Virus record (IMG/VR): IMGVR_UViG_2660238061_000004
Source: a virus
Lineage: Duplodnaviria > Heunggongvirae > Uroviricota > Caudoviricetes
Direction: 5' to 3' (one strand)
Length of the DNA: 26,702 nt
Part shown: positions 6,531 through 26,702 of the stretch, one piece after another
Position numbering within the stretch: position 1 is the stretch's first letter
Layout: each line of letters opens with the position of its first letter
Notes under the pieces: model-generated
Databases searched by the model: none
What the model was told of the DNA's origin: nothing
Seen by the model: the letters and a program-made list of their open reading frames with translations, nothing else
Made by a program: the position numbers and the translations under genes

Positions 6531-7238
6531 TTATTGTTGGGCTGTCTGCTTTCCCTCGCGCAGCTTATCCATGTGCGCTGCCCACGCTTCAGGCGGGCAG
6601 TTCGACGGCGTGACGATGCAGACCTTTCCGTAACTCAGGCCAGCCAGATCGACATTCACTTCCGTTTTGTTGCTCATGTCGATGCCGGTGAGCTGCGCGG
6701 CGTTTTTGATGTTCGGGGCTACCTGCCCAAACTTCTCAGCGTCCAGCGCGGCTTTCGCCGATTTGTAGGAGAGTTCAGCCAGGTCTTTCGCGTCGAATGA
6801 TACGAGCAGAGCGGCATCCTGACGCAGCTCTCTGATGCGCCTGCGCACATCCGGGCGTTTGAAAAGTATCGATGCCTGGGAATCAGCGCGTGAAGGCGAA
6901 TAGCCCGCGCATATCGCCGCCTCTTTCTGCGGCATGCCCCGCGCGATGTTCTGCGCAAACTGCTCATGCTGTGGTTTAAGGATGCCTGCGTTTTCCTGCG
7001 CAGTATCGCCCTCAACTGGCGTAGAGGCTTCAACCACTACTACATGCGGCATCTGGCTTTGCGCAGTTTTGCGCACATCCTTTTGCGCAGTTTTTTGCGC
7101 AGCAGGCTTTTTGATGTACCTGCGCGCAGATGTATAATTCAGTCCCTGCGCTTCGCACCATTCTTTCGGCGATATACCTGTTTTGGCATGCTCGGCGAGG
7201 AACCGTCTTTGGAGGCTTCCCCAGTCCGGTTTTGCCAT
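6531..7238 (-). CDS. terminase small subunit
   Basis: 235-aa ORF directly upstream of terminase large; N-terminal HTH-like segment ([23 protein letters not shown]); ATG at 7236..7238. Confidence 0.65.
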
Positions 7239-7374
7239 AAAACTCTCTGGAATATTCCAATAAACGAGGCGATAGTAACCATTGAAAATGACGAAGTATT
7301 AGCGGCAAAAATTATTTTGCTTCTATACAAGTGTCATGTTTCAACCCTAAGAACTTTGATGCAAAGGAACGACT

Positions 7375-7635
7375 ATGTCAGATGTAGAAAAAAGAATTGC
7401 CCATCTTGAGGATTTGGTTGAAGAGTTACAGTTACACAGCCACGCTTCTCGTGTTGCTATTGCTGTATTATCAACGGCTTTAAACGGAGTTGTGGGGAAA
7501 GAAACTCACCTCGGAGATGTTTATTTAGAAGGGGTTTCTAAGGCCGACCCCATCGAATTCGACATTCCCGCTAAAGATGGATACCTAGAAAAATTAAACG
7601 AGAGAGTCGCTGCTCTACTAGGCAGAGCACAATAA
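7375..7635 (+). CDS. small coiled-coil protein, AT-rich moron in the lambda bor position
   Basis: ATG 7375 with AAAGGAAC upstream; 86 aa (MSDVEKRIAHLEDLVEELQ...) with a hydrophobic stretch VAIAVLSTALNGVV; opposite strand to the flanking late genes; not Bor-like (no lipoprotein signal). Confidence 0.5.
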   Translation: MSDVEKRIAHLEDLVEELQLHSHASRVAIAVLSTALNGVVGKETHLGDVYLEGVSKADPIEFDIPAKDGYLEKLNERVAALLGRAQ

Positions 7636-7671
7636 GCATTTTTCAAAATCATTTTTCTTAAGCCTTTTACG

Positions 7672-7689
7672 CATCCCCTCCGGGGGATG
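7672..7689 (+). other. GC-rich hairpin after the 7375 gene, no T-run
   Basis: catcccc-tccg-ggggatg perfect 7-bp stem. Confidence 0.25.
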
Positions 7690-7726
7690 TAGCCATAAAG
7701 ATGAGTTTGTCCATAGCGTTGACACT

Positions 7727-7750
7727 AAAAAACCGCCCGTAGGCGGTTTG
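7727..7750 (-). terminator. rho-independent terminator for minus-strand (late) transcripts
   Basis: aaccgcc-cgta-ggcggtt perfect stem preceded by an A-run on plus, which is a T-run on the minus strand. Confidence 0.45.
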
Positions 7751-8134
7751 TAGGTGAAAGGAAGGCCAAGCTAATGCGAATTACTACAAGGTTCAGTTAT
7801 CCCTAATGACGCGACGGACATTTCGGGGCCAAACCAAGCAGCGTCACCTGAGCCCCTTGGCTTTTCATGAATTGACCCAACAGCGTGACCTGAAAGGCGG
7901 GAGACTCCAACGTCCCAGACGCGGGTGGTAAAAATCTCAAGATGGTCATCCATCTCGGAATTCTCCCTTCGCACTATCCTCTCGATTTCTGTTACCCCTG
8001 GCTCAGGAACCCTGACGTCACGATCAACGGTTGCTTAAGGGGAAGTCCAAAAACTGGGTCAAAAAGACCTCCTTGAACTTTCCGTGGGTTAACATTTTTT
8101 ATGATAGCGAAACGGGTAACTTTCGCAAATATTG

Positions 8135-8398
8135 TTATTTAAAATGAGATGTGCGTGAAAGTTCAACCTTCCATATATCAGCCTTATCCCGATTGCATTG
8201 CCCCAGCGCCGATAGCAGACTGACATTCAGATCCAGACTGTCCCCGTAGGTCAGCGGCTCGGGAATGGCAGGCTGTGGTGTTTCAGCTGTCAGGTTCGCC
8301 GGCAGGGGCACCACCGGCGCCTGCACGTAAACTGTCCGCGTATTCCCGCAGCCGGTTAGCAGCTGCAGCAGGCACAGGCCGACGAGCGCAATCATCAT
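8135..8398 (-). CDS. Rz1-like outer-membrane spanin lipoprotein
   Basis: Out-of-frame ORF starting inside Rz; lipobox LLTGC after a hydrophobic leader; proline-rich mature part; start taken at the internal MM (track ORF is 8135..8464). Confidence 0.55.
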   Translation of the reverse strand: MMIALVGLCLLQLLTGCGNTRTVYVQAPVVPLPANLTAETPQPAIPEPLTYGDSLDLNVSLLSALGQCNRDKADIWKVELSRTSHFK

Positions 8399-8675
8399 CC
8401 GCAACAGCCACTTTGATATCTGCCTGGGCTCTCTGTGACTCCAGTGCGATCTTGTTCTTTGCATTCTGGTTCGCCTCTGAAATGGCGTTGATGATACTCA
8501 CGGCCCGAATCACGTTCGCGGTGACAGCATTCGCGGTCTCAGCCTGCTGTTCTGCGCTATCGGCCCGCTCCTTTTCGCTACTGGCTTTGTCGCTGTAATA
8601 CCATGCCGACCAGCACGCCCCGCCGAACAGGCAAAGGAGGAATATGGCAATCGCAATGATGTGACGAGCTTTCAT
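8283..8675 (-). CDS. Rz-like inner-membrane spanin
   Basis: 130 aa with an N-terminal transmembrane segment and a coiled-coil/charged periplasmic part; start overlaps the endolysin stop. Confidence 0.65.
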   Translation of the reverse strand: MKARHIIAIAIFLLCLFGGACWSAWYYSDKASSEKERADSAEQQAETANAVTANVIRAVSIINAISEANQNAKNKIALESQRAQADIKVAVADDDCARRPVPAAAANRLREYADSLRAGAGGAPAGEPDS

Positions 8676-9521: not shown

Positions 9522-9550
9522 TGAAAAAGAAAAGGCCCGCGTATGCGAGC
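9522..9550 (-). terminator. candidate terminator in the late leader upstream of the lysis genes (tR-prime-like)
   Basis: Imperfect GC-rich stem ggcccgcgtatgcgagcc with a T-rich tract on the minus strand, about 100 bp upstream of the holin start. Confidence 0.3.
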
Positions 9551-9806
9551 CTCTATAAATTCTTTGCCACTTCCCGGAGTGGCCACGCTCATGCCCTTGA
9601 GCTGCTGTCGCATCATCGCCGCTTATCACCGGTGCGCGTCTGGCTTTCGCGCTGCTTTACCGGAGCTATTTTTAATCTATGAACCCTGACCCGTCACTAC
9701 ACAGGCTCGCTCAATGGCGACTCGGGGCAGCATCATGACTGCTGCATTGCCTTTCGGCTACGGTGTGTCCGTTCTACTCTACATTTTCATACCCTCCAGA
9801 AACGGC

Positions 9807-9931: not shown

Positions 9932-10762
9932 TTATCGAGTTATTGCTCGCAGTTGCGATTCGGCCCACGCTTCTTCCATGTCGAATTTGGTGATCAGCCG
10001 GTCGTAAAACGGCTTCACTGACTTTTTCCAGGTGTCCAGAGTAATGGCGTCGGTAATAAGGCAAACAGCCGCATATGCCTCAGTCGAGGGGATCCGCTCA
10101 TACCCGCGCCCGCCGCAGCGCTTGCAGTCGGCCATCACCGGCGCGCCCTGCTTTTCTGTCAGCGTCTTGCTGACAGCTTTTCCGCGCCCCTGGCAGTCAT
10201 TACATGCGCAGCTGACGACCTTCTTCCCTTTGCAGGCCGAGCACAGCACCCGGGCCACCTCTTTCACCTCACGCCGATTCTGATGCTGCGAAGGGATAAC
10301 CTTCAGCCCCCATTTTTTTGATTTTTGAATGATGTCTTTTGCGCAGCCAGAGATGCTGGTTTTCATACTAAAAACGTCAGCCTCAATGAACCCCTGCCCT
10401 GCGCAACATTCGCACCTCTTGACGCTGGCGGCGCTGCGGGAATAGTCCTCAAAAGCGAAGGTAGCAAGCTGGCGCATCACCAGCGGTTTAACCCCAGCGT
10501 CCAGTTTGCGCAGGGCAGCCACGCTATCGCATTTTGTCAGCGCATACTGGGCCAGCAGCTCGATCGCTCTCTCCCGATCGTTGTTGCTGATGCCCATCTT
10601 TCCGAGAAAGGCACTGTAGCCCATGGCGGCGCGTTCCTGGGTCATGCCCATGGCTGCCATGATGTCCGTTCCGGTCAGCGAGTCGGAGGCCGTAGCGCGC
10701 GGAGAGTCGCTAATCAGCGTCGATTTGGCGAAGTGGTATTTCACGGTGTTTTCGAGGTTCAT
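9932..10762 (-). CDS. late-gene antiterminator Q candidate with CxxCxGxG zinc-finger repeats
   Basis: 276-aa ORF between rusA and the holin, the position Q occupies in DLP12/lambda; four CxxCxGx(G) motifs. Assignment is mainly positional. Confidence 0.55.
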   Translation of the reverse strand: MNLENTVKYHFAKSTLISDSPRATASDSLTGTDIMAAMGMTQERAAMGYSAFLGKMGISNNDRERAIELLAQYALTKCDSVAALRKLDAGVKPLVMRQLATFAFEDYSRSAASVKRCECCAGQGFIEADVFSMKTSISGCAKDIIQKSKKWGLKVIPSQHQNRREVKEVARVLCSACKGKKVVSCACNDCQGRGKAVSKTLTEKQGAPVMADCKRCGGRGYERIPSTEAYAAVCLITDAITLDTWKKSVKPFYDRLITKFDMEEAWAESQLRAITR

Positions 10763-12387: not shown

Positions 12388-12636
12388 TCAGACCGTTGAT
12401 TTCATATTATCAGAAGGTTGGGTTACCCGGTAGCCGAGACGGTTAATAAACTGCATAAAACCATTAGGAGTAAAGACCTCTTCATCATCCAGCAAAGGCC
12501 GCATAGAAACCATGCCATTGACGCGATAAATTAGATGCCTGCCCGATGAAGGAAAGCTAAACACCACGCAGCCGTCAGACCTTCTTACAATGTCATACCA
12601 GTTGTCTTCTGACGTTTGCAAAGCTGAATCACTCAC
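12388..12636 (-). CDS. small hypothetical protein downstream of the dinI-like gene
   Basis: 82-aa ORF (MSDSALQTSEDNWYDIVRRSDGCVVF...); same strand as and 117 bp after the dinI-like gene with no obvious terminator between them. Confidence 0.45.
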   Translation of the reverse strand: MSDSALQTSEDNWYDIVRRSDGCVVFSFPSSGRHLIYRVNGMVSMRPLLDDEEVFTPNGFMQFINRLGYRVTQPSDNMKSTV

Positions 12637-12753
12637 ATTTATGTTCTCCCTTCGAGCGACTAACAGACGCGATTAAAGATTGTCGGCAGCAGCATCAGAG
12701 GGTTACGCAAATTGCGGTATTCTGAAAAATGCGCGCCAGCCTTAAGCGCAATT

Positions 12754-12987
12754 CTAATAAAACCAGTCGTCAGCGCTTTCCCAGGTATCCTGGAGGATTG
12801 ATTCAATTTTCTTTTTATCGTCCTTGTCACCACCAAAAACACTTAACCCATCGGCCCCGGCACGGCGGATTGTGAGCCTGCAATTGTCATAGTGATCATT
12901 CAGGCGCTTAAGCAGTTCTTTCTCCAGTGCTGGTACTGCGCCTTTAGGAAGTTCTTTCATGCGATCAATGGTTAATTCAACTTTCAT
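12754..12987 (-). CDS. dinI: DinI-family protein
   Basis: 77 aa from the internal ATG (MKVELTIDRMKELPKGAVPALEKEL...ILQDTWESADDWFY) with the DinI C-terminal signature; GGGGG SD upstream; LexA box about 20 bp upstream. Confidence 0.8.
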   Translation of the reverse strand: MKVELTIDRMKELPKGAVPALEKELLKRLNDHYDNCRLTIRRAGADGLSVFGGDKDDKKKIESILQDTWESADDWFY

Positions 12988-13005
12988 AATGGCCCCCATT
13001 GCATG

Positions 13006-13050
13006 TACTGTGTTTTTATACAGTATACCTATGCGCGGAAATGATCAACG
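13006..13050 (-). promoter_or_regulatory. SOS box (LexA operator) overlapping the -10 of the dinI-like promoter
   Basis: TACTGTGTTTTTATACAGTA at 13006..13025 fits CTGT-N8-ACAG; on the minus strand TATACT overlaps the box and TTGATC lies about 15-16 bp upstream. Confidence 0.65.
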
Positions 13051-13094
13051 TTTTAAGAGCACAAATTGTTAATTTTCTGTCAGTTGTAAAAAAA

Positions 13095-13117
13095 GAAAAC
13101 CCGCCGTAGCGGGTTGA
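13095..13117 (-). terminator. rho-independent terminator for minus-strand transcription, left boundary of the AT-rich island
   Basis: aacccgc-cgta-gcgggtt perfect stem preceded by an A-run on plus (T-run on minus). Confidence 0.5.
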
Positions 13118-13478
13118 ATTAGCAGTGTTATATTAAGCGGCAATTTCTTTCTGCCGGCACAATCCCGAGAGATTCGCCCTCTGTATCGCATCATCAATGA
13201 GCACCTGTATGACCATGAGGCAAAGCGTTATCCAACTTGCATTCATCTTTTTCAATCAGCAAAGGAGTGGTTAGTGCTGTGAGTGGGCTTTGTTCACTTC
13301 ATGGTAGATAAATCAGCTATGGATAAGTGATAAGAGGTGAAATCAATCCGAATTAACAACCTGAAGCACATTAATCGGAACACAGATATTAAAATCCTAA
13401 AGTCTAGTAACAAATAGCCGATATGAGATATTGCTTATCAGTTTAAAAATCATCTATTGAAAAAATGGGGGGGAGGCG

Positions 13479-14042
13479 TTGAAGCGAGTAGAGCGCGATT
13501 TTATCTGTCTGTTTAATTGTGTGTGGTATCAAGATTTCCCTGTGTTCAAAGGTGAATATATCAACCGTTCCAACTGGACCATTCATGTTGGCCTGGTCAT
13601 GCGCGAGTGTGCAAAGTTAATGGGCGCAAGAACATTTTTTGAACAAGGCGGGCGTACCGATGCGGTCCTACAATATCCAGACAATCAAATTTTAACCTAT
13701 GTTGAGTGGGAGTATAATCAGGCAGACAGAGATAGCGTTAACGAGTTAGACAAACTGCTTGAAAAAAACGACAAGTGCTATTTCTCCACATTCATCTCAT
13801 ATTGTCAGCATGAAAACATCAATATTGTTATTGAAAAAGCAAGTAGAATATGGAGTGAAGCAAGCAGGCCTTTGATTTTTTTTCTTATCACCTATGAGCC
13901 TCAAACGAAAAAACGCCGCCATTTTTTAGAACTCAGAACTTATTTTTTCTCAAACGGCAAAAGAAAACTAGTTCGCAAACAACCTGCGCTTCCATGGGAT
14001 ATTGAGCAACGAAAATACAATGTCGAAGAAGATGCAGGATAG
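13479..14042 (+). CDS. orphan 187-aa protein, AT-rich, function unknown
   Basis: TTG start with strong GGGGGGAGG SD 3-4 nt upstream; roughly 40 percent GC by eye versus a GC-richer backbone; opposite strand to the surrounding phage genes. Confidence 0.5.
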   Translation: MKRVERDFICLFNCVWYQDFPVFKGEYINRSNWTIHVGLVMRECAKLMGARTFFEQGGRTDAVLQYPDNQILTYVEWEYNQADRDSVNELDKLLEKNDKCYFSTFISYCQHENINIVIEKASRIWSEASRPLIFFLITYEPQTKKRRHFLELRTYFFSNGKRKLVRKQPALPWDIEQRKYNVEEDAG

Positions 14043-14081
14043 AAGAGACATAAGGTTTTCACGACAGTCTCGTTCCGAGCC

Positions 14082-14463
14082 CTAACTAAAATATTCTGTT
14101 CGGAGCAACCAAATAGCTCTGGCTTTGCTGTGACCATGTTCGCGGTACCAACGCCTCTCTAGGTCCGCTTCTCGCTCATGGTGGACCAAAATCAAATCTA
14201 AAATGACGTGGCTAAGCGGGAGTACATAGTGAATGACAGGATGCTCCGGGCAGCACCATACTAATTCAGTTCCCGTCAGAGGTAGGCGTTGCTTCATGAT
14301 GGGATGAGCGCTCCCTCCAGACAATCCATGCGACAGCCGCCTCCCATGATATATATCCATTACCGCCATTTTTCGCTCTGCGGAGATTAACTGCATCACC
14401 AAACCTTTCAATGATGAATTTTTCAAATTCTATGCGTTTTTCTTCGTCGATTGTTGAATCCAT
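14082..14463 (-). CDS. pair of overlapping small ORFs (65 aa and about 71 aa) or one frameshifted gene
   Basis: Upstream frame MDSTIDEEKRIEFEKFIIERFGDAV... ends at 14266; second frame has a GGAGGGAG-ATG start near 14303 and runs to 14082 (MKQRLPLTGTELVWCCPEHPVIHYV...). Confidence 0.35.
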
Positions 14464-14530
14464 ACCTTCCCCAGAAGAGTCCTACGAATCGCTCTTATTG
14501 CATAAAAAATAGCATATACAATAGAGAGTG

Positions 14531-14550
14531 AAAAACCGACGTAGCGGGTT
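14531..14550 (-). repeat. degenerate second copy of the 13095 hairpin element
   Basis: aaaaaccgacgtagcgggtt versus aaaacccgccgtagcgggtt at 13097..13115; same orientation; stem is imperfect in this copy. Confidence 0.35.
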
Positions 14551-14742
14551 AACTTTATGTTACTCATGAGTCTTGTCTCGCTGCGACTTAAAAGCGGAAC
14601 ATTCTCGCGCAAGTTGCGTTGCTAAAGCTACGGGGTTGAATGGCTCTCCATGCCCATTTAAGAAGGCATGCGGTGTGTAGTTGAACGTTATTTAAAACAC
14701 AGATAGAATCAAGAAAAATCCTAAATAAATGGAATATTGTTT

Positions 14743-15123
14743 ATGGCTAAGAAAATCGCATTACTGGGCTTTTCTGCTCTTTTTGTTGCAAGTGTTGCTT
14801 TTGCTGAAACGACAAGTAACTGGGTTGAGGTTACTACAGCTGATGATGGCATTTTTTCAGCAAAAAAAGGCACATTTAGAAATGTAAAAGGTGATTCATC
14901 TGCCTTGTTCATGTATCAAACAAAAAATAAAAAAGTAGAGTACTACAAAGTTAGTATTAAAGATGCCGACTGTGATAGTGGATATGGGGAGATAAGATTC
15001 TTCTATATGGATGGGAAATTAGCTTTCAAAGGTGATTATGTTGCTGATGGGAACAGTGTTGGCGCAGGTATTGGTGATTTTATGTGTGGAGTCAGAATTG
15101 GACTTAACACACAAAAAAGTTAA
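14743..15123 (+). CDS. small secreted/periplasmic protein, function unknown
   Basis: MAKKIALLGFSALFVASVAFA signal peptide (AFA-E cleavage motif), about 105-aa mature domain with two Cys; AT-rich; no strong SD. Confidence 0.55.
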   Translation: MAKKIALLGFSALFVASVAFAETTSNWVEVTTADDGIFSAKKGTFRNVKGDSSALFMYQTKNKKVEYYKVSIKDADCDSGYGEIRFFYMDGKLAFKGDYVADGNSVGAGIGDFMCGVRIGLNTQKS

Positions 15124-15163
15124 ATGAGGGGCATTTGTTAAAAAACAATAGCCCCACATTAGA

Positions 15164-15365
15164 TCAATATTGGCTCCGGCATTTCTGGATAAAAGCTTCT
15201 ATGCTACGGCGCTCATAGCGAACAATCTTAGCGCTGAACTTTACACGGGGCCAATGTAGACCGGTGTCGGTGTTCTGTATTCCATTTACATAATGTTTTT
15301 TGCGTAATTCCCAGCTTCTGGCATACCTCGCCCGGAGTGAGGAGATCATCAGGTTGCTCAGTCAT
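15164..15365 (-). pseudogene. AlpA-family HTH regulator remnant, frameshifted
   Basis: ATG 15363..15365 with GAGG upstream gives MTEQPDDLLTPGEVCQKLGITQKTLCKW...; the track ORF 15164..15349 in another frame continues with GLHWPRVKFSAKIVRYERRSIEAFIQK, which fits the C-terminal half of an AlpA-type protein. Confidence 0.4.
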
Positions 15366-15537
15366 GTTATGCCTCGCTGTTATCTGGGGTGATGATTAGC
15401 AGCTTCCAGATGGCTGAGACATACATAGCCTGATGTTTCGCATCGACTAGGGCATTATGCATGTCACCTTCAAACGGCATGTCCCGAGTTCTCCCTTTTC
15501 GCCGCTTTCGCGTCGCATATTCTCCAAACGGTATTTA

Positions 15538-16095
15538 TCAATCATTACTGTTATCCTCGCAGTAGTAGTGCCGTCCCTCTGGGTCAGTAGATACATGTCC
15601 GCAGATATCGCATTCAATTCCAGGAAGCACCGATTCTGACTGCGCTTTGATATGCAGTCGCGGTTCACCGTCTTTCGGCTCTGGCCACTGGCGGTTTTTG
15701 TTAACCGCCAGCTTTTCTACCATCGCCAGGGTAATCTGCTTATCACTGATACCGGCACGACGTTGCGCATCCCATAACAGGAATTGCATGTCAGCCCATT
15801 CGCTCATCTCGTCTGGTTCCGCAGCAGCCTCGATAGCTTCTTTGGAAAGGTGCTTCAGCGGACCAACTGGACCGACATCGCCGAATGTTTCATCTGACCA
15901 TGCTGCATGTTCACAGCGTACCTGCTCACGGGCTATCGACTCCAGAACCCCATCAATCACCTTCACTGCATCAGCCATTGCGTAGCCGAGATTACCGCCG
16001 TCGCTTTGTGCTGCTGCTTTGCTGAGTATTTCGCGTATCTGGTGCAAGCGATCAAGTGATACAGGACCGTGCGCCGGGTGGTTGTTAGTTGTCAT
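15538..16095 (-). CDS. phage protein with MazG-like NTP pyrophosphohydrolase-type region (DUF550-like) and C-terminal Cys cluster
   Basis: 185 aa; segment EMSEWADMQFLLWDAQRRAGISDKQITLAMVEKLAVNKNRQW resembles MazG/DUF550 proteins from memory; CDICGH...YYCEDN at the C-terminus. Confidence 0.45.
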   Translation of the reverse strand: MTTNNHPAHGPVSLDRLHQIREILSKAAAQSDGGNLGYAMADAVKVIDGVLESIAREQVRCEHAAWSDETFGDVGPVGPLKHLSKEAIEAAAEPDEMSEWADMQFLLWDAQRRAGISDKQITLAMVEKLAVNKNRQWPEPKDGEPRLHIKAQSESVLPGIECDICGHVSTDPEGRHYYCEDNSND

Positions 16096-16098
16096 GGG

Positions 16099-16299
16099 TT
16101 AGTCCTCTACCTTGTTTCCGCAATGCGGGCAGTAATTGAACTTATGGGCGAATCCAGGATGCGGAACGGCAAAGCGTTTGGTTTTCTCGTTCCAGTCAGC
16201 AATTACGATTTCAAAATTTACGACCGCATTAGCCCAGTCACTGGAAAGAACTGGCTGCGACCCAATCAGGCCGACTATACAGCGATTACATTTTTCCAC
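16099..16299 (-). CDS. small zinc-ribbon protein
   Basis: 66 aa with CxxC at each end (CNRC ... CPHC); tightly packed in the operon. Confidence 0.45.
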   Translation of the reverse strand: MEKCNRCIVGLIGSQPVLSSDWANAVVNFEIVIADWNEKTKRFAVPHPGFAHKFNYCPHCGNKVED

Positions 16300-16303
16300 T
16301 GAC

Positions 16304-16498
16304 TCACACCCCCTTCACGCCAATGCCAGCAGTAAATCGCGACGGTGACCAATCGCAATATGTGTTCGACTCCGTGTGTCCAAAAATTGCTTTACAACGA
16401 TGGATATGGTGGCAATTACCACATGTTATGCCAGCCGGTAATCGCATCTTGTCGGGATCGGCTGGGTCATAATTCAACGCCAGTTTTTCGGTTGTCAT
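16304..16498 (-). CDS. small Cys/His-rich hypothetical protein
   Basis: 64-aa ORF (…GITCGNCHHIHRCKAIFGH…) with 4-nt overlaps to its neighbours. Confidence 0.4.
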   Translation of the reverse strand: MTTEKLALNYDPADPDKMRLPAGITCGNCHHIHRCKAIFGHTESNTYCDWSPSRFTAGIGVKGV

Positions 16499-16833
16499 GC
16501 TGGCATCCTCCCCACGATATCTATAACCCGACGCATAACCGCACTTCCCCGAAAATCTGCTGGTAACTCAATCAGAGGCTTACTCGAACCGTATGAGAAT
16601 CGTTGGAGATCGAAATCAATTACAGCCTTTGGGTCCCTGAACAAATCTAGACGACCGTAACGAATGAGTTCGCCGCGTTCGGCTGCTACGCGGAAATACT
16701 TCTCAGCAGTCTGACGATGCAGCGACAACATCTGTGATGCCTCGCTAACGGTTAAGCGTCCACGGATTTTCACCTCTTCGATGATCACCCGGATAAGTGC
16801 CGCCTGCTCTTCTGGTGTATTTGGTCTTGGCAT
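16495..16833 (-). CDS. hypothetical protein with putative HTH, immediately downstream of O
   Basis: 112-aa ORF; LTVSEASQMLSLHRQTAEKYF looks HTH-like; sits where P or a helicase loader would be but is too small for one. Confidence 0.45.
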   Translation of the reverse strand: MPRPNTPEEQAALIRVIIEEVKIRGRLTVSEASQMLSLHRQTAEKYFRVAAERGELIRYGRLDLFRDPKAVIDFDLQRFSYGSSKPLIELPADFRGSAVMRRVIDIVGRMPA

Positions 16834-16835
16834 GC

Positions 16836-17747
16836 TTACCCCCTGAATCCGGGTGGGATTGTTTTGTCTGGCTCAGAAATGCGGTTCACATCCCTGCCCG
16901 TTTTGCGAGCGTTGAGAGCGAACTTCGGTTTAAACAGTCCCTGGTACCCGTTGGCGATACTGGTGTTGATCACATCAACGGGGTCATGCCCAGCGTCCAG
17001 GCAAGCCTTGAGCAACTTGAATGCTTTGGTGACCGTCATTTCGGTCTTGATGGCTTTGCCAGACTGTTGGCGGTAGGCCACCCACTCACTCCAGGACACA
17101 GAATCAAGCCACTCAGGAACGGGAATCGTCAGCGGGTCAAACTTACCCTTCCCCTTTGGGGGATTAGAGGGGGTTAGATCTGTATTTATATTTGTATTTG
17201 GAAGAATGTCTTTGGTGTTCCCTGTTTTCAGGGATACCTCTCCCTGTTTTTGGGGATGGTTATCCCCGTTTTCAGGGATGATTGAAGGGGTAAAATTGCT
17301 ATCCCTGAATTCAGGGATGGTAATAACCCATGTGACAACTTCAGCAGCAGGAAACACCGCTGGACACTTCATGCAATTTGGCTTGGTATACGCCCATTTA
17401 TCCAGGCTGGTATTAATCCCTATGTATCTGGTTTGCCCAATGCGGCGCAGGATGATGATGTTCCGATAGGCAAGGCTCAACACGGCTTCAGAGACGTGTT
17501 TCACCTTCAGCGTCGTTTTATCTGCAATGAGGCTATTGGCGATGCGGTCAGAACTCTTAGACCAGCCATAGGTCAGACGAACGATAGCATTCAGCACCCG
17601 GAACTCGCGCCCGGATAGTTCGACGATACACAGGGCATCCTGAATCTGGTTGGCCAGGCGCAAATAGCCTTTCTCCAGTTCAGCCATGCTGCTCTCCTGT
17701 TTCCCCTGCTGTGTGGGGAATTTGAATATTTCAGCGGTATTTGACAT
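16836..17747 (-). CDS. replication initiation protein O-like
   Basis: N-terminal region (MSNTAEIFKFP...REFRVLNAIVRLTYGWSK...) resembles lambda O from memory; iterons lie inside the gene; start taken at the internal Met (track ORF runs to 17780). Confidence 0.8.
   Translation of the reverse strand: MSNTAEIFKFPTQQGKQESSMAELEKGYLRLANQIQDALCIVELSGREFRVLNAIVRLTYGWSKSSDRIANSLIADKTTLKVKHVSEAVLSLAYRNIIILRRIGQTRYIGINTSLDKWAYTKPNCMKCPAVFPAAEVVTWVITIPEFRDSNFTPSIIPENGDNHPQKQGEVSLKTGNTKDILPNTNINTDLTPSNPPKGKGKFDPLTIPVPEWLDSVSWSEWVAYRQQSGKAIKTEMTVTKAFKLLKACLDAGHDPVDVINTSIANGYQGLFKPKFALNARKTGRDVNRISEPDKTIPPGFRG
17178..17212. other. AT-rich tract next to the iterons (candidate unwinding element)
   Basis: gatctgtatttatatttgtatttggaagaatg immediately beside the iteron array, on the side expected for the direction of O transcription. 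Confidence 0.45.
17219..17317. repeat. origin iterons: four 16-bp palindromic repeats
   Basis: tccctgttttcaggga (17219), tccctgtttttgggga (17241), tccccgttttcaggga (17263), tccctgaattcaggga (17302); spacing 22, 22 and 39 bp; resemble lambda ori iterons. Confidence 0.7.
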
Positions 17748-17831
17748 ACTGTTCTCCGCAATTACGCACAGTTTTTGCACCTGAAAGCCGTTGGTGTTCG
17801 AGCACCGCGGCTTTCGCCATTTCTGAGCCCG

Positions 17832-18400: not shown

Positions 18401-18619
18401 CTACTTTGGTAATCCGTCAGTGGGATTTGGATAGAGATCAGGGCGCAGCTCGTGGGGGGTTACGCCTGTCATTTTGAAAATCGGGAAGATATAGCTTGGC
18501 GGGACGATCCCTTGGTCACGATTCTTCCAATGACTTACAGACATACTCGTCACACCAAGCGCGATGCTGAGCTTTCTGGCAGAGCCAGCGGCTTTAATTG
18601 CTTTATCGAGTGCGGACAT
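18401..18619 (-). CDS. Cro-like HTH regulator
   Basis: 72 aa; HTH SARKLSIALGVTSMSVSHWKNR; AGGAGA SD; divergent from the repressor gene. Confidence 0.7.
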   Translation of the reverse strand: MSALDKAIKAAGSARKLSIALGVTSMSVSHWKNRDQGIVPPSYIFPIFKMTGVTPHELRPDLYPNPTDGLPK

Positions 18620-20958: not shown

Positions 20959-23868
20959 ATGGAATTTTTCCATCTGATAAAAGCCAGTCAGAAGTCTGGC
21001 AAGAAAGATGCAGTGATTTGGTTCACTGCGAAAAGTGTAGCGCGCGCCAATCTCCAACTCGATGTGGCACTGGAAGAAGCCGGAATTGAAGAAACTGGCC
21101 GCGGTAAAGATTATGCCAAACCAATCCGCACCGATTTCCCGGTATATGACGACCTGCCGGAAGAAGGCGCAGTGGATTACACCTGGTGCAAACGCTACGA
21201 ACTGCAGAACGATGACCGCACCTGGATGCCAAAAGTCACAGCTGAAAACTCTGACGAGAAAACGGCTCAGACCGTTGATAGTCACATAACTACTGAGTCA
21301 ACGCTGCCAGAAACCGCTGGCATCACGCTGGACGAACACGACGACGACTCAACCCTCTACCCGGTAGTGCAGATGCCGTTTCGTAAGCAACTGCTTTCCC
21401 AGTTCACCGCCGACGAACTGCGCCACCACGTAACCCGCGAAGAGTACGAAGCTATCGGCGCGCTGGAGATGGACACTGATAACAGTTACGTCCAGAACTT
21501 GCTGTTAGCTGCTGAGAACTGCCCGGACGTGAAGGGTTACGACACCAAAGACCTGTGGCGCTACACCGATGCCATTCGCAAAGTGTTCAGCCAGGACAAG
21601 CGTCACGAACTCGCGCTGGTACTCCGTTTCACCAGAATGTGGGCGGCGACTGATTACATTGACCGTGGCATCCTGGCGCGTGAATGGGCTGCCGGTAATC
21701 ACATCAGTAGTGTTCAGCGTACTGATTCCGGAACCAATGCCAACGGCGGTTACGTCACTGACCGTGGACCTGATGCATACCATACCCTTGACACTCTCGA
21801 TTTAGAGATTGCATGTGCCCTTCTGCCTATGGACTTCAACCACTTCGAGATCCCGGGCAGCATTCTTCGTCGCGCTAAAGAAATCGTGACCAAAAAAGAA
21901 GAACCGTGGAAATCATGGAGCAGCATTCTGCGCAATCAACCCGGCGTTCTTGGCGTTAACCGCACAGCTATTTTTAACCTGATACGTATCGCGCCGGAAA
22001 ATATTCATCTAACTCCTGTCGCTCACCTGGAGTTTGTTAACCGGACCATGACTGCTGCGTTTAATGCTGCTGTTGAGTTATTGCCATTGCATGAAGCTGA
22101 GCCCGCAACACAGGAAATTCCCCAACCTGAAAGTAAGGAGTCTCCACGCAAACCCTTCTGCACTCACGAAGAGAACCTGCAACGCGTACGTGAAGAAGAA
22201 GCACGCCGCCGCGCAGAGGAAGCGACAGCACAACCACATAAAGCCGAACAAGAACTGGTTAAAAATGTCGGCAACGGAATATTCGATGTTACGGCTTTAC
22301 TGCAGAACTCAGCAACTCATGGCACGAAACAGGCTACGGAAACCACCAGCAATGTGCAGGTTCAAGAAACTGTCAGTGATGAAAAAAATGTTGGTAATGA
22401 AATGCAGTCAGGCGAAAGCAGTCTGGAAACTGGTGAAGAGTCACATCCCGGCCAGCAGGCCGATGTAAACCAAAATACGGAATCTGTCGCTCAAAATAGC
22501 GATTCTGTAAACCAGACTGAACCAGTTTTGGCACACGTCGAGCCAGAGGCGCAATCTGACGAACAAGCTGTTTTTTACCCCGATTACTTCGAGCCTGGGC
22601 GCTATGAAGGTCTGCCGAACGAGGTTTACCACGCTGCCAACGGCATCAGTTCCACCCAGGTAAAAGATGCGCGCGTTTCGCTGATGTACTTCAATGCGCG
22701 CCACGTTGAGAAAACCATCGTCAAAGAGCGCTCCTCAGTGCTGGACATGGGAAACCTGGTACATGCGCTGGCGTTGCAGCCAGAACAGCTCGATGAAGAA
22801 TTTAGCGTTGAACCCGTAATTCCGGAAGGTGCATTTACCACCACGGCAACGATCCGCGCGTTTATTGATGAGTACAACGCCAGCCTGCCAGCGCAACTGA
22901 GCGCAGACGATATCAAAGCTTTGCTGGATGAATACAACGCCACCCTGCCAGCGCTGGTGCCGCTGGGCGCTAGCCTGGATGAAACGGCGCAGAACTATAT
23001 GGCGCTGCCAGCTGAATTCCAACGTATCGATGCAGATCAGAAGAAGACAGCAACAGCAATGAAGGCGTGCATCAAAGAGTACAACGCCACCCTGCCAGCG
23101 CAGATTAAAACCAGCGGCAGCCGCGACGCACTACTCGAACAACTTGCGATTATCAATCCTGACCTGGTCGCGCAGGAAGCTCAGAAGCTGCAACCGCTGA
23201 AAGTCTCTGGCACGAAGGCCGATCTGATTCAGGCCGTGAAGGCAGTCAAACCAGATGCAGTGTTCGCCGACGAGCTGCTCGATGCGTGGCGCAACAACCC
23301 GGAAGGGAAAGTGCTGGTTACCCACCAGCAACTTGCCACCGCGCAGGCAATTCAGTCAGCACTGCTCTCGCACCCGACCGCAGGCATGCTGCTAACCCAC
23401 CCGAGCCGCGCCGTTGAGGTGAGCTACTTTGGCTTTGACGAGGAGACGGGACTGGAAGTTCGTGTGCGCCCTGACCTTGAGATCGACCTAGACGGCGTGC
23501 GTATCGGTGCTGACCTGAAAACCATCAGCATGTGGAATGTTAAGCAGGAAAGCCTGCGCGCCAGGCTACACCGGGAAATTATTGAACGTGATTATCACCT
23601 GAGCGCGGCTATGTACTGCGAAACCGCAGCGCTGGATCAGTTCTTCTGGATTTTCGTCAACAAAGACGAGAACTACCACTGGATCGCCATCATCGAGGCA
23701 TCCGCTGAACTACTGGAGCTGGGTATGCTCGAGTACCGCAAAGCGATGCGCAATATCGCAACCGGATTCGACACAGGTGAATGGCCAGCGCCAATCACTG
23801 CTGACTACACCGACGAACTGAACGACTTCGACCTGCGCCGCCTTGAAGCGCTGCGTACTCAGGCATAA
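20959..23868 (+). CDS. recE: exodeoxyribonuclease VIII (RecE-like)
   Basis: 969 aa from ATG 20959 (AGAGGA SD); N-terminal region matches Rac RecE as I recall it (...DFPVYDDLPEEGAVDYTWCKRYELQNDDRTW...); large acidic linker; C-terminal nuclease-like domain; followed by recT. Confidence 0.8.
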   Translation: MEFFHLIKASQKSGKKDAVIWFTAKSVARANLQLDVALEEAGIEETGRGKDYAKPIRTDFPVYDDLPEEGAVDYTWCKRYELQNDDRTWMPKVTAENSDEKTAQTVDSHITTESTLPETAGITLDEHDDDSTLYPVVQMPFRKQLLSQFTADELRHHVTREEYEAIGALEMDTDNSYVQNLLLAAENCPDVKGYDTKDLWRYTDAIRKVFSQDKRHELALVLRFTRMWAATDYIDRGILAREWAAGNHISSVQRTDSGTNANGGYVTDRGPDAYHTLDTLDLEIACALLPMDFNHFEIPGSILRRAKEIVTKKEEPWKSWSSILRNQPGVLGVNRTAIFNLIRIAPENIHLTPVAHLEFVNRTMTAAFNAAVELLPLHEAEPATQEIPQPESKESPRKPFCTHEENLQRVREEEARRRAEEATAQPHKAEQELVKNVGNGIFDVTALLQNSATHGTKQATETTSNVQVQETVSDEKNVGNEMQSGESSLETGEESHPGQQADVNQNTESVAQNSDSVNQTEPVLAHVEPEAQSDEQAVFYPDYFEPGRYEGLPNEVYHAANGISSTQVKDARVSLMYFNARHVEKTIVKERSSVLDMGNLVHALALQPEQLDEEFSVEPVIPEGAFTTTATIRAFIDEYNASLPAQLSADDIKALLDEYNATLPALVPLGASLDETAQNYMALPAEFQRIDADQKKTATAMKACIKEYNATLPAQIKTSGSRDALLEQLAIINPDLVAQEAQKLQPLKVSGTKADLIQAVKAVKPDAVFADELLDAWRNNPEGKVLVTHQQLATAQAIQSALLSHPTAGMLLTHPSRAVEVSYFGFDEETGLEVRVRPDLEIDLDGVRIGADLKTISMWNVKQESLRARLHREIIERDYHLSAAMYCETAALDQFFWIFVNKDENYHWIAIIEASAELLELGMLEYRKAMRNIATGFDTGEWPAPITADYTDELNDFDLRRLEALRTQA

Positions 23869-25314: not shown

Positions 25315-25512
25315 ATGGATGATATTTTGGTAACGTCAGACCTGACCAGTCGCTACAAAATTTCACGCAAAACCCTTTGGTCATGGCAAAGTGCAGACAC
25401 AATGCCTCGGGGCTTCGTATGCCCGTTCCCACCCCCTGACTGGCCCGGCAACCCTAACCGCTGGCGCTCTGAGTCAATCAAAGAGTGGGAGGATAAAAAG
25501 AAGATAAATTAA
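25315..25512 (+). CDS. AlpA-family DNA-binding protein (excisionase-like regulator)
   Basis: 65 aa from the internal ATG with GGAGAGAG SD; [20 protein letters not shown]...FPPP...[10 protein letters not shown] fits the AlpA pattern; convergent with the integrase. Confidence 0.6.
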
Positions 25513-26702
25513 CTGAAGGGCTCTCCGATGATCTCTTCAAGATGGCTCTGCCAAACGCGGAGCCAGTGTTTCTGATCATCGATATAGTCATGAAGGTTGT
25601 AATGCGCCATAACCCCCACCATCTGATGCCCGAGCAGCTTTTCAATTACGTGCGGCGGGCAACCTAACTCAGAGAGATTTGTGGCTATCGTCCGCCTCAT
25701 ATCATGAAGCGACCACTCTGCCATACCTGTTCCATTCCAAATAGAACGGGCGTAATTGGATGCCACAGGTGAATGAACGGGCGAATCTTTGATCCCGCCA
25801 TCAATTTTACGTTGTGAAGTCACCAGGTGATTGGTGTTTATTTTCTTGAGGTGATTTCTGACCAGGTTAACGGCGGCGTCTGAGAGTCCCCTTCTAATAT
25901 GTACCCGAGTTTTATAACTGCCCGCAGGCACGACCCACTCATTATCATCCAATCGAAACCATGATCTCTCACTAAGTCGAATCTCAGCCGTACGGCATCC
26001 GGTAAGCATAATAAATTTCACCAGGAAAACGGACTCTATCGACATATGGCTTTTCAACCACTGATAGATTTTGCGCAGATCGTCATCGTCCATCCTGCGA
26101 GTTCTCTTTTTAGGCTTTTGCCCGACATCAGATGGCAGTAATCCCTCGAGTGGGTTTGAGGCGATCACACTTCTGTTAACGCAGAACCTAAAGGCCCGTT
26201 TGCACAGCGAAAGCATGTAATGAGCCATCACCCTGCTTTCTATAGAATCGAAGACGTTGATCCAGTGCATTTTCGCTGTGTTATCGACTTTGACATTCTT
26301 CATCGGTTCGGCGATATGTTTCTCAAACACCTGGCGATAGTAATCGACTTTAACTAGCCCGTTAGCGATACAGTGCCTTTCAATCCAGTAATTGAACGCT
26401 TCGGCAACGGACATCGCTTCCTGTCGGGTCTGCTTATCCAGCTTCACCTGCTCTCGCGGATCCAGTCCCTCAGTTAACCAGTTTCTGAATTGTTGGCGAC
26501 GCTCTCTTGCCTGGGTGATACTCATTGCAGGATAATCACCAACATTGAGTTTTACCGCTTTACCGGCCCAGCGATACCGATAGAAAAATGATATTTTTCC
26601 GGCCTGGCTGATTCTGGCGTTGAGCCCGTGCGAATCAGAAATAATCTCGATATCATCTCTTTTCTTGCCGAGCGCCTTCCTGAGCTTTGTGTCGGTGATC
26701 AT
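25509..26702 (-). CDS. int: tyrosine integrase, P4-like
   Basis: 397 aa; C-terminal catalytic region with ...HDMRRT...LLGH...AHY...; ATG falls exactly on the last three bases of the window. Confidence 0.9.

Follow-up and report, generated by a model that had tools for sequence, protein, structure and literature searches.

A direct repeat of a terminator-like hairpin in the accessory region of a lambdoid Escherichia coli prophage

Phage lambda carries the nin-region terminators tR2, tR3 and tR4 and the late terminator tR', which are Rho-independent and lie on the strand of the rightward operon. Two further systems from related phages are relevant here. Morons have been described in phages of the HK97/HK022 type (Juhala/Hendrix; reviewed in PMC3594210), and lambdoid phages with Rad52-like recombinases have been shown to undergo relaxed homologous recombination where shared sequences are short and diverged (PMC3945230; PMC2327257). 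We examined a short hairpin sequence that occurs twice in direct orientation in a viral DNA of 26,702 nt (IMG/VR record IMGVR_UViG_2660238061_000004, here called the window), together with a related hairpin about 5 kb away. One copy (copy 1, or hairpin 1) lies upstream of dinI, the other (copy 2) upstream of p65, a gene for a 65-amino-acid (aa) protein; the related site is called hairpin 3. The RefSeq annotation of one E. coli genome, along with similarity to phage mEp237, identifies the window as an E. coli prophage of lambdoid, mEp237/Rac-like type whose early-right and late genes are on the minus strand.

We consider it likely (probability roughly 0.8) that all three hairpins are Rho-independent terminators or the relic of one, and that copies 1 and 2 are orthologous, coming from two cassettes, dinI and p65, that are stacked in tandem. 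The evidence is presented below together with the other explanations that were weighed.

Sequence and folding of the three hairpins

Copy 1 (AAAACCCGCCGTAGCGGGTT) occupies positions 13096-13115, starting one base to the left of the 13097 given in an earlier note on this DNA, and copy 2 (AAAAACCGACGTAGCGGGTT) occupies 14531-14550. The copies are in direct orientation with a spacing of 1435 bp and are identical at 18 of 20 positions, or 22 of 26 when the flanks are included; their local alignment stops at about 21-26 nt. A search of the window allowing up to three mismatches returned these two sites alone, against 0.01 expected from shuffled sequences. When all 26-mer pairs with at least 22 matches were collected over the whole window, five diagonals were found versus 0.05 in shuffles, the remaining four being coding repeats in recE or in a head gene. 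An Rfam scan of the whole window returned no family.

The folding of the three sites differs. On the minus strand, hairpin 1 forms a stem-loop from 13115 to 13098 (AACCCGC-UACG-GCGGGUU) with a 7-bp stem and a C(UACG)G loop, followed by the U-tract UUUUCUUUUUUU; its folding energy is -12.8 kcal/mol (z -3.8). Hairpin 3 (AACCGCCCGTAGGCGGTT at 7731-7748) folds as AAACCGCC-UACG-GGCGGUUU followed by UUUAG, with the U-tract UUUUUUAG, at -15.6 kcal/mol (z -3.9). The terminator scan and the folds place the U-tracts of hairpins 1 and 3 on the minus strand only, and both sites combine a stable stem, a 3' U-tract and a co-oriented gene end upstream. They thereby carry every sequence feature by which an intrinsic terminator is predicted, on the operon strand. 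Copy 2 fails on the stem. It retains a run of five U residues, and its minus-strand fold reaches only -3.0 kcal/mol (z +1.16), a value that 182 of 200 shuffles equalled or bettered; in the comparison of p65 loci its value was -1.8 kcal/mol. The earlier view of two copies of the same hairpin in direct orientation thus holds for the repeat, its orientation and its shared descent, but copy 2 no longer folds.

Viral contigs were scanned for AAAMCCGMCGTAGCGGGTT to see how common the motif is, and the counts that follow are lower bounds taken among the matches listed. The exact 19-mer of hairpin 1 was present in at least 119 viral contigs. The 113 listed matches with 200-nt flanks fell into at least 72 left-flank and at least 85 right-flank families, and the only part common to them was the 19-mer itself. 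There was nothing shared beyond it and there were no terminal repeats among these 113 occurrences, unlike a dispersed repeat of the REP/MITE kind. The A-tract, which is the U-tract on the other strand, lay on the same side in 67 of 88 distinct contexts and on the opposite side in 8, a strand bias that is the signature expected of a terminator. Every one of the 5426 complete E. coli genomes contains near-copies (median 4 per genome). Two of these were inspected: both share the stem and carry a CGAA/UUCG loop, one being the terminator of rnpB and the other a terminator from the hokD region of another prophage. Abundance of the 19-mer was dropped as a sign of mobility, the counts being lower bounds for this one hairpin. 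The earlier note had allowed that the motif could be a ubiquitous host terminator without enrichment at accessory-gene boundaries. This largely applies to the motif as such, given its presence in every E. coli genome and in at least 72 unrelated phage contexts; breakpoints still cluster at copies 1 and 2, as described below.

Hairpin 3 matches hairpin 1 at 16 of 20 positions, and the four differences amount to two swapped stem base pairs. Because the motif is generic, this likeness is uninformative. It has the lysis genes on one side and the gene for the small terminase on the other, and is downstream of Rz1 and of a plus-strand open reading frame (ORF) of 86 aa. Region 7000-8500 is present whole in 17 E. 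coli genomes, while others match only from about 8176 (Rz1). No homology breakpoint was found at 7730-7749 among the E. coli genomes, and a mosaic boundary at hairpin 3 was ruled out on these grounds. Hairpin 3, proposed earlier as a third relative of the repeat, is indeed a strong hairpin with 16 of 20 positions in common, but its features make it a predicted separate terminator of the same generic design as hairpin 1, and it shows no association with mosaic boundaries.

The dinI and p65 cassettes and their junctions

The 5' end of hairpin 1 lies 128 nt upstream of the dinI ATG. An identical hairpin is found in mEp237 and in two E. coli prophages (L003 and L004; collected loci are labelled L), and the exact sequence is present at -128 in 52 of the 73 loci collected via dinI. 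It is the most conserved 20-nt block of these loci, at 0.98 compared with 0.84-0.90 for the promoter region and the dinI 5' end. Between the hairpin and dinI, 21-40 nt upstream of the start codon, lies a LexA (SOS) box that is conserved in relatives. The consensus of such boxes is CTGT-N8-ACAG, to which TACTGTGTTTTTATACAGTA is a perfect fit. A second predicted terminator follows dinI at 12750-12732 on the minus strand. From this layout, dinI looks like an insulated, SOS-controlled unit.

On its other side, hairpin 1 is preceded by the end of a methyltransferase gene. The last 29 or so codons remain (..QRANLSGLCRQKEIAA*), with the stop codon about 20 nt upstream of the hairpin. At the DNA level this remnant is 81-88% identical to the methyltransferase tails in L109, L033, mEp237 and L003, and a tblastn comparison aligned it with residues 677-705 of the L109 methyltransferase (E 0.079). 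At the corresponding position L003 is annotated with a methyltransferase pseudogene. In L109, a full methyltransferase gene of 705 aa ends 17 nt before the hairpin, and it is p65 that follows the hairpin. Two copies of the methyltransferase 3' end, of about 70 nt and about 600 bp apart, are present in L004 (4434-5100; E. coli 23CRST046) and in mEp237. They enclose a small minus-strand ORF, so that in these phages a boundary sequence is duplicated within the same slot.

Copy 2 marks the upstream edge of the p65 cassette, as hairpin 1 does for dinI. Proteins 82-87% identical to p65 are encoded in L109, L033 and 20 other viral loci. The 5' end of copy 2 is 87 nt upstream of the p65 start codon, and a hairpin is located at -88 in 22 of 23 p65 loci, a set that was anchored on p65 and so not ascertained on the hairpin motif. 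In 14 of these loci the hairpin is stable (-11.8 to -14.8 kcal/mol), and loops vary (UACG, UCCG, UUCG, CAGA) while the stem is kept. Six of the seven window-type loci have a decayed version (-1.8 kcal/mol), and the L220 hairpin is weakened (-5.7 kcal/mol). The seventh window-type locus, L215, appears to be without copy 2 and has its junction at 14532; it lies 28 nt from the contig end and was not used as evidence. Positions 14293-14550 of the window are 91.9% identical to L109 143-401, with the alignment stopping precisely at the hairpin edge. Relative to the intact L109 version, copy 2 has lost one C of a CCC and carries one C>A change; both fall in the same arm and are uncompensated. By this alignment copy 2 is a decayed orthologue of the hairpin 1 terminator, with recombination junctions at the hairpin.

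Two alternative interpretations of the p65 region were rejected. The phrog_660 match covers the middle of the profile only, and p65 and an overlapping 114-aa ORF were considered as one frameshifted gene; L109 and other loci encode an intact protein of 61-66 aa. An ORF end to the right of copy 2 (..LATQLARECSAFKSQRDKTHE*, 14561-14690, minus strand) was considered as a second methyltransferase tail, and it has no DNA or protein similarity.

In L109, L033, L225-227 and L234-235, a perfect hairpin has on its left the flank found left of copy 2 (..catatacaatagagagtga) and on its right the methyltransferase tail (gaattagc..) that borders hairpin 1. Because these relatives connect the copy 2 flank, an intact hairpin and the methyltransferase tail, copies 1 and 2 are related by descent. 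A chance or convergent origin of their likeness would fit the generic design, with a stem shared by the rnpB and hokD-region terminators, the occurrence of the exact 19-mer in at least 72 unrelated contexts, and an alignment that ends at about 21-26 nt. It is contradicted by this synteny. Moreover, the divergence between copy 2 and its L109 counterpart (2 changes in 21 nt) is no greater than the 8% of the adjoining 259 nt, and only 0.01 matches of this quality are expected by chance, which makes convergence highly improbable. Since either dinI or p65 follows the same terminator in different phages, the slot after the methyltransferase gene can hold either one, and the window lineage holds both in tandem.

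The positions of the hairpins could also indicate that both copies are functional terminators that jointly insulate the island between them from early-operon transcription. Both are on the operon strand at fixed distances upstream of small genes (-128 and -87/-88), and copy 2 keeps its five-U run. On the other hand, copy 2 lacks the stable stem that its intact relatives have, at -11.8 to -14.8 kcal/mol, and we regard joint insulation as very unlikely.

The reading in terms of two stacked terminator cassettes leads to the following scenario. Hairpin 1 would end the methyltransferase transcript and insulate the LexA-controlled dinI gene downstream; in the lysogen it would block read-through into dinI, and in lytic growth it would be overridden. 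Its role would be like that of tR2-tR4 in the lambda nin region. The p65 cassette, with the same hairpin, would occupy the post-methyltransferase slot in other phages, and the window lineage would have stacked the two. Replacement of the methyltransferase gene upstream of copy 2 by an antisense-oriented moron would have made this copy dispensable, after which it would have lost one base and changed another in one arm. Copy 2 is probably inactive. The direct repeat would then have arisen as a side effect of modules recombining within a hypervariable slot for accessory genes, and would not be the footprint of an insertion mechanism. Junctions at the upstream edge of the hairpin would likely arise because a unit of terminator, promoter and gene survives selection, and the short shared hairpin and methyltransferase tail may also have served as homology for relaxed recombination, with RecE and RecT encoded by the prophage. 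Random joining followed by selection for intact units would be an alternative route to the same junctions.

Homology between the window and the collected loci ends at a few recurrent positions: 13096 (3 loci), 13115-13121 (7), 13147-13154 (8), 13180-13181 (6) and 14550 (2), with further endpoints at the gene ends 12755 and 12391-12394. Between the window and the island-bearing L043, 15 differences fall in 12755-13110 but only 10 in 13111-14783; between the window and mEp237 there are none in 12452-13084 and 7 in 13124-13147. These counts indicate a recent crossover between an mEp237-type dinI module and the island lineage within 13111-13123. Pairwise comparisons of the collected loci gave a similar picture. 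Of the 120 p65-set pairs whose upstream sequences are distinct, 101 stop matching no more than 10 nt from the hairpin. The same holds for 342 of the 1035 dinI-set pairs, and the remainder break 10-130 nt deeper in the methyltransferase tail; the pair counts come from ungapped comparisons of related, non-independent contigs at this hairpin alone. Among the matches listed, the dinI module is joined at the hairpin to 9 right-flank families. Terminator and downstream cassette tend to move together, and mosaic boundaries are frequent at the terminator's upstream edge.

A cleaner hairpin-bracketed cassette than that of the window is present in L072 (6670-6968) and L010 (4387-4685). There, a cassette of about 260 bp with a small lipoprotein-like gene lies between two identical, exact hairpins 280 bp apart, directly upstream of a ninB-type region.

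These junctions bring up the possibility that the hairpin itself is a recombination substrate, a portable linker through which hairpin-bounded cassettes are exchanged by RecET/Red-type annealing or through hairpin-prone DNA. Such a model overlaps with that of stacked terminator cassettes but gives the hairpin a causal part. The crossover in the window's own history lies at the hairpin edge, the copy 2 junction falls exactly at 14550/14551, most p65 pairs break within 10 nt of the hairpin, nine right-flank families are joined to the dinI module there, and L072 and L010 carry a cassette between two identical copies. The prophage also encodes RecE and RecT, and lambdoid phages are known to recombine at short diverged homologies (PMC3945230; PMC2327257). 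However, the identity tracts measure merely 13-26 nt, and two thirds of the dinI-set breakpoints are 10-130 nt upstream, in the methyltransferase tail. Junctions would come to lie in the same place if selection retained intact terminator-promoter-gene units. Furthermore, the exact-motif sample was ascertained on the motif, and breakpoints were compared at this hairpin alone. A role of the hairpin as recombination substrate is thus unlikely, and a more specific form of the idea, in which the near-invariant 18-19-nt hairpin doubles as a primitive cassette-exchange site where dinI, p65 and the lipoprotein-like gene are swapped, stacked or flanked without a dedicated recombinase, through crossovers inside the hairpin made by the RecET/Red annealing functions of the phage, is slightly more doubtful still.

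The interpretation of the hairpins as terminators of two stacked cassettes has several points against it. That hairpin 1 terminates and that copy 2 is read through are predictions from the sequence. Clustering of breakpoints cannot separate recombination within the hairpin from selection acting on random junctions. No N-like antiterminator was recognised in the phage annotation, and no N/nut system was identified. Searches of phages, E. coli genomes and viral contigs turned up no source for 14551-14679, and the event behind that junction therefore cannot be reconstructed. Finally, hairpin 1 carries two weakening substitutions (AACCCACUACGUCGGGUU; DNA AACCCACTACGTCGGGTT) in five of the six other island-bearing contigs (L043/L173, L157, L175-L177), where strong termination may not be essential. 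The G>U change at the loop-closing position of the AACCCACUACGUCGGGUU variant is also present in copy 2 (CUACGUCGG), for which gene conversion between the direct repeats and a shared ancestry of the mutation are both possible.

The interval between the copies and its surroundings

The earlier note had the two copies bracket an island of cargo genes, as possible marks of units of gene acquisition. The pair does flank the gene for the 187-aa protein (p187) and the ORF pair at 14082-14463, but the low-GC foreign region extends to about 15366, and other phages share a block of 12755-16107 or 12755-16836. The interval itself is assembled, patchwork fashion, from at least four pieces that differ in their relatives; it holds the methyltransferase tail, p187, the p65 cassette and a segment of unknown origin. 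Because of this patchwork the hairpins are not the ends of acquired DNA, and, with the shared block, it tells against reading them as island ends or as marks of acquisition units.

The cargo genes have separate histories. DNA similarity of p187 to its closest relative is limited to the coding sequence, and its homologues are solitary chromosomal genes in Pseudomonas and Pantoea. As an uncharacterised protein with a BamHI-like predicted fold, p187 may merit a study of its own. To the right of copy 2, the unit encoding the 126-aa protein p126 is 81% identical in DNA to a unit of the P1-like plasmid p.CT29-P1. The match is confined to 14680-15131, includes 63 nt of upstream promoter region, and in p.CT29-P1 adjoins an IS3 element. 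A promoter-like site (14681-14709) was found for p126 only among the cargo genes. By this sequence match the p126 unit is a putative independent moron shared by a lambdoid prophage and phage-plasmids. When the island (13150-15400) was compared with the phage collection in a distant-mode DNA search, nothing matched.

Base composition and distribution are those of morons. The G+C content (GC) is 0.37-0.48 across 13000-15400, and 0.37-0.41 in the island, versus 0.58-0.64 in the nin genes. Of 5426 E. coli genomes, 3 have the island and 53 the adjoining dinI module, and region 12700-15200 is present in three complete E. coli genomes at 99.8% identity or more. The expression signals give a different result: the only promoter-like site of the cargo belongs to p126, and the hairpins lie on the opposite strand. 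The U-tracts of the hairpins are confined to the minus strand, whereas p187 and p126 are plus-strand genes, which means that the hairpins do not act as terminators of the cargo. What survives of the suggestion that terminator-like hairpins stand at moron boundaries is that the sequences are of terminator type and that breakpoints occur at the edges of copies 1 and 2; the predicted terminators are those of the minus-strand dinI and p65 cassettes, whereas the cargo is on the plus strand.

Direct repeats around a low-GC cargo could arise as a target-site duplication or as an attachment (att)-like core of a mobile element that inserted 1.4 kb into a terminator. The orientation and 18/20 identity of the copies and the absence of the island from most relatives would agree with this, and the right junction coincides with the repeat (14550/14551). 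The left junction does not, since it lies at 13154-13222, and homology with island-free relatives runs 40-85 nt past the hairpin 1 repeat (to 13154/13181). No recombinase or transposase domain was found in any ORF of 13116-15366, and the only integrase is that of the prophage. In addition, p65, p187 and the methyltransferase tail each have different relatives, the block shared between phages is 12755-16107 or 16836, and neither a deletion product nor an alternative insertion was found in phages, E. coli genomes or viral contigs. An insertion of this type is therefore extremely improbable.

The surroundings have the gene order of a lambdoid prophage, beginning with the cro-like gene (Table 1). 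After dinI, the minus strand continues with a ninB-like gene, rusA, Q (9932-10762), the lysis genes and terminase; recE, recT and the integrase gene are annotated on the plus-strand side. A strong minus-strand terminator with a 10-bp stem and a U-tract is located at 9531-9554, between the Q-like antiterminator and holin genes, a tR'-type position. Within the replication-protein gene, 2.8 tandem copies of a 22-bp unit (TCCCTGTTTTCAGGGATGCCTA) at 17219-17280 are probably origin iterons. In recE (22864-23100, plus strand), a coding repeat of about 30 nt (GAGTACAACGCCASCCTGCCAGCG) is present in three imperfect copies with spacings of 60, 147 and 207 nt.

Table 1. Positions of the hairpins, cassettes and genes in the window.
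Feature	Position	Strand	Basis	Remark
Hairpin 3, predicted independent intrinsic terminator	7730..7749	minus	terminator scan, fold	
dinI	12754-12987	minus	Pfam DinI, E 3.8e-26; RefSeq annotation	
LexA (SOS) box TACTGTGTTTTTATACAGTA	13008-13027		read from sequence	between hairpin 1 and dinI
Hairpin 1, predicted intrinsic terminator	13084..13115	minus	terminator scan, fold	
Crossover interval	13111..13123			right edge of hairpin 1; mEp237-like to the left, identical to island-bearing lineage (L043) to the right
C5 DNA cytosine methyltransferase C-terminus remnant	13136-13222	minus	translation, DNA identity, tblastn	patchwork piece
p187, 187-aa cargo gene	13479-14042	plus	predicted fold	PD-(D/E)XK, BamHI-like nuclease
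Segment of unknown origin	14043-14292			patchwork piece
p65, 65-aa gene, function unknown	14266-14463	minus	RefSeq coding sequence; phrog_660 E 6.9e-5	
p65 cassette	14293-14550		L109 alignment	patchwork piece
Copy 2, decayed orthologue of hairpin 1 terminator	14531..14550	minus	fold, L109 alignment	
p126 unit	14680-15131	plus		right of copy 2; 126-aa protein with signal-peptide-like N-terminus, predicted promoter
Exoribonuclease pseudogene	15367-15486		RefSeq annotation	
DUF550 gene	15538-16095	minus	RefSeq annotation	after replication gene
Replication gene	16836-17780	minus	RefSeq annotation	after cro-like gene
cro-like gene	18401-18619	minus	RefSeq annotation	head of early-right gene order
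Prophage integrase	25509-26702	plus-strand side		sole integrase, about 12 kb from the hairpins

Comparison with known systems

Several described systems place short palindromes at cassette boundaries. Integron attC sites, REP/BIME elements and the hairpin targets of IS200/IS605 insertion sequences are, like the window hairpin, short imperfect palindromes in such positions. The window differs from them in having no dedicated integrase or transposase apart from the prophage integrase, in a hairpin of 18 nt versus 57-141 nt, and in lacking conserved flanks and terminal repeats, and the strong strand bias of its hairpin is of the terminator type. For hairpin repeats around islands in general, strand, fold and relatives should be checked before such repeats are read as insertion footprints.

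Enterobacterial terminators such as that of rnpB have the AACCCGC/GCGGGUU stem, a UNCG-class loop and A/U tracts in common with the window hairpins, and this generic design explains the resemblance of the site at 7730. They differ in having a UUCG instead of a UACG loop, a chromosomal location and unrelated flanks.

The recent exchange at 98-100% identity beside a short diverged shared region, in a prophage encoding RecT, is like the mosaic boundaries described as "HR trace" (homologous recombination; PMC3945230; PMC2327257). The crossover tract in the window is very short, however, with only 13 nt of identity within about 100 nt at 75-88%.

If the reading as stacked terminator cassettes is true, the locus is a clean, datable example of how a lambdoid accessory slot is built, with two cassettes that normally compete for the post-methyltransferase position now stacked, each retaining the terminator upstream of it, one of these terminators decayed, and a recent crossover placed in a 13-nt interval at the hairpin edge. 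It would be useful as an illustration and for the annotation of module boundaries.

Like the morons of HK97/HK022-type phages, p187 and p126 deviate in GC and are missing from close relatives; of the expression signals that morons bring with them, a promoter-like site was found for p126 only. The window unit differs in its order, which is terminator-promoter-gene versus promoter-gene-terminator, and in hairpins that lie on the strand opposite to the cargo, where they form the upstream edges of the dinI and p65 cassettes. The lambda terminators tR2-tR4 resemble the window hairpins in lying between the replication genes and ninB/Q, in separating small accessory genes and in being presumably read through lytically; they have no sequence homology to the window hairpins, whose function as terminators is predicted. 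Taken together, the locus is an instance of known lambdoid mosaicism and adds no new principle to morons, nin-region terminators and relaxed homologous recombination.

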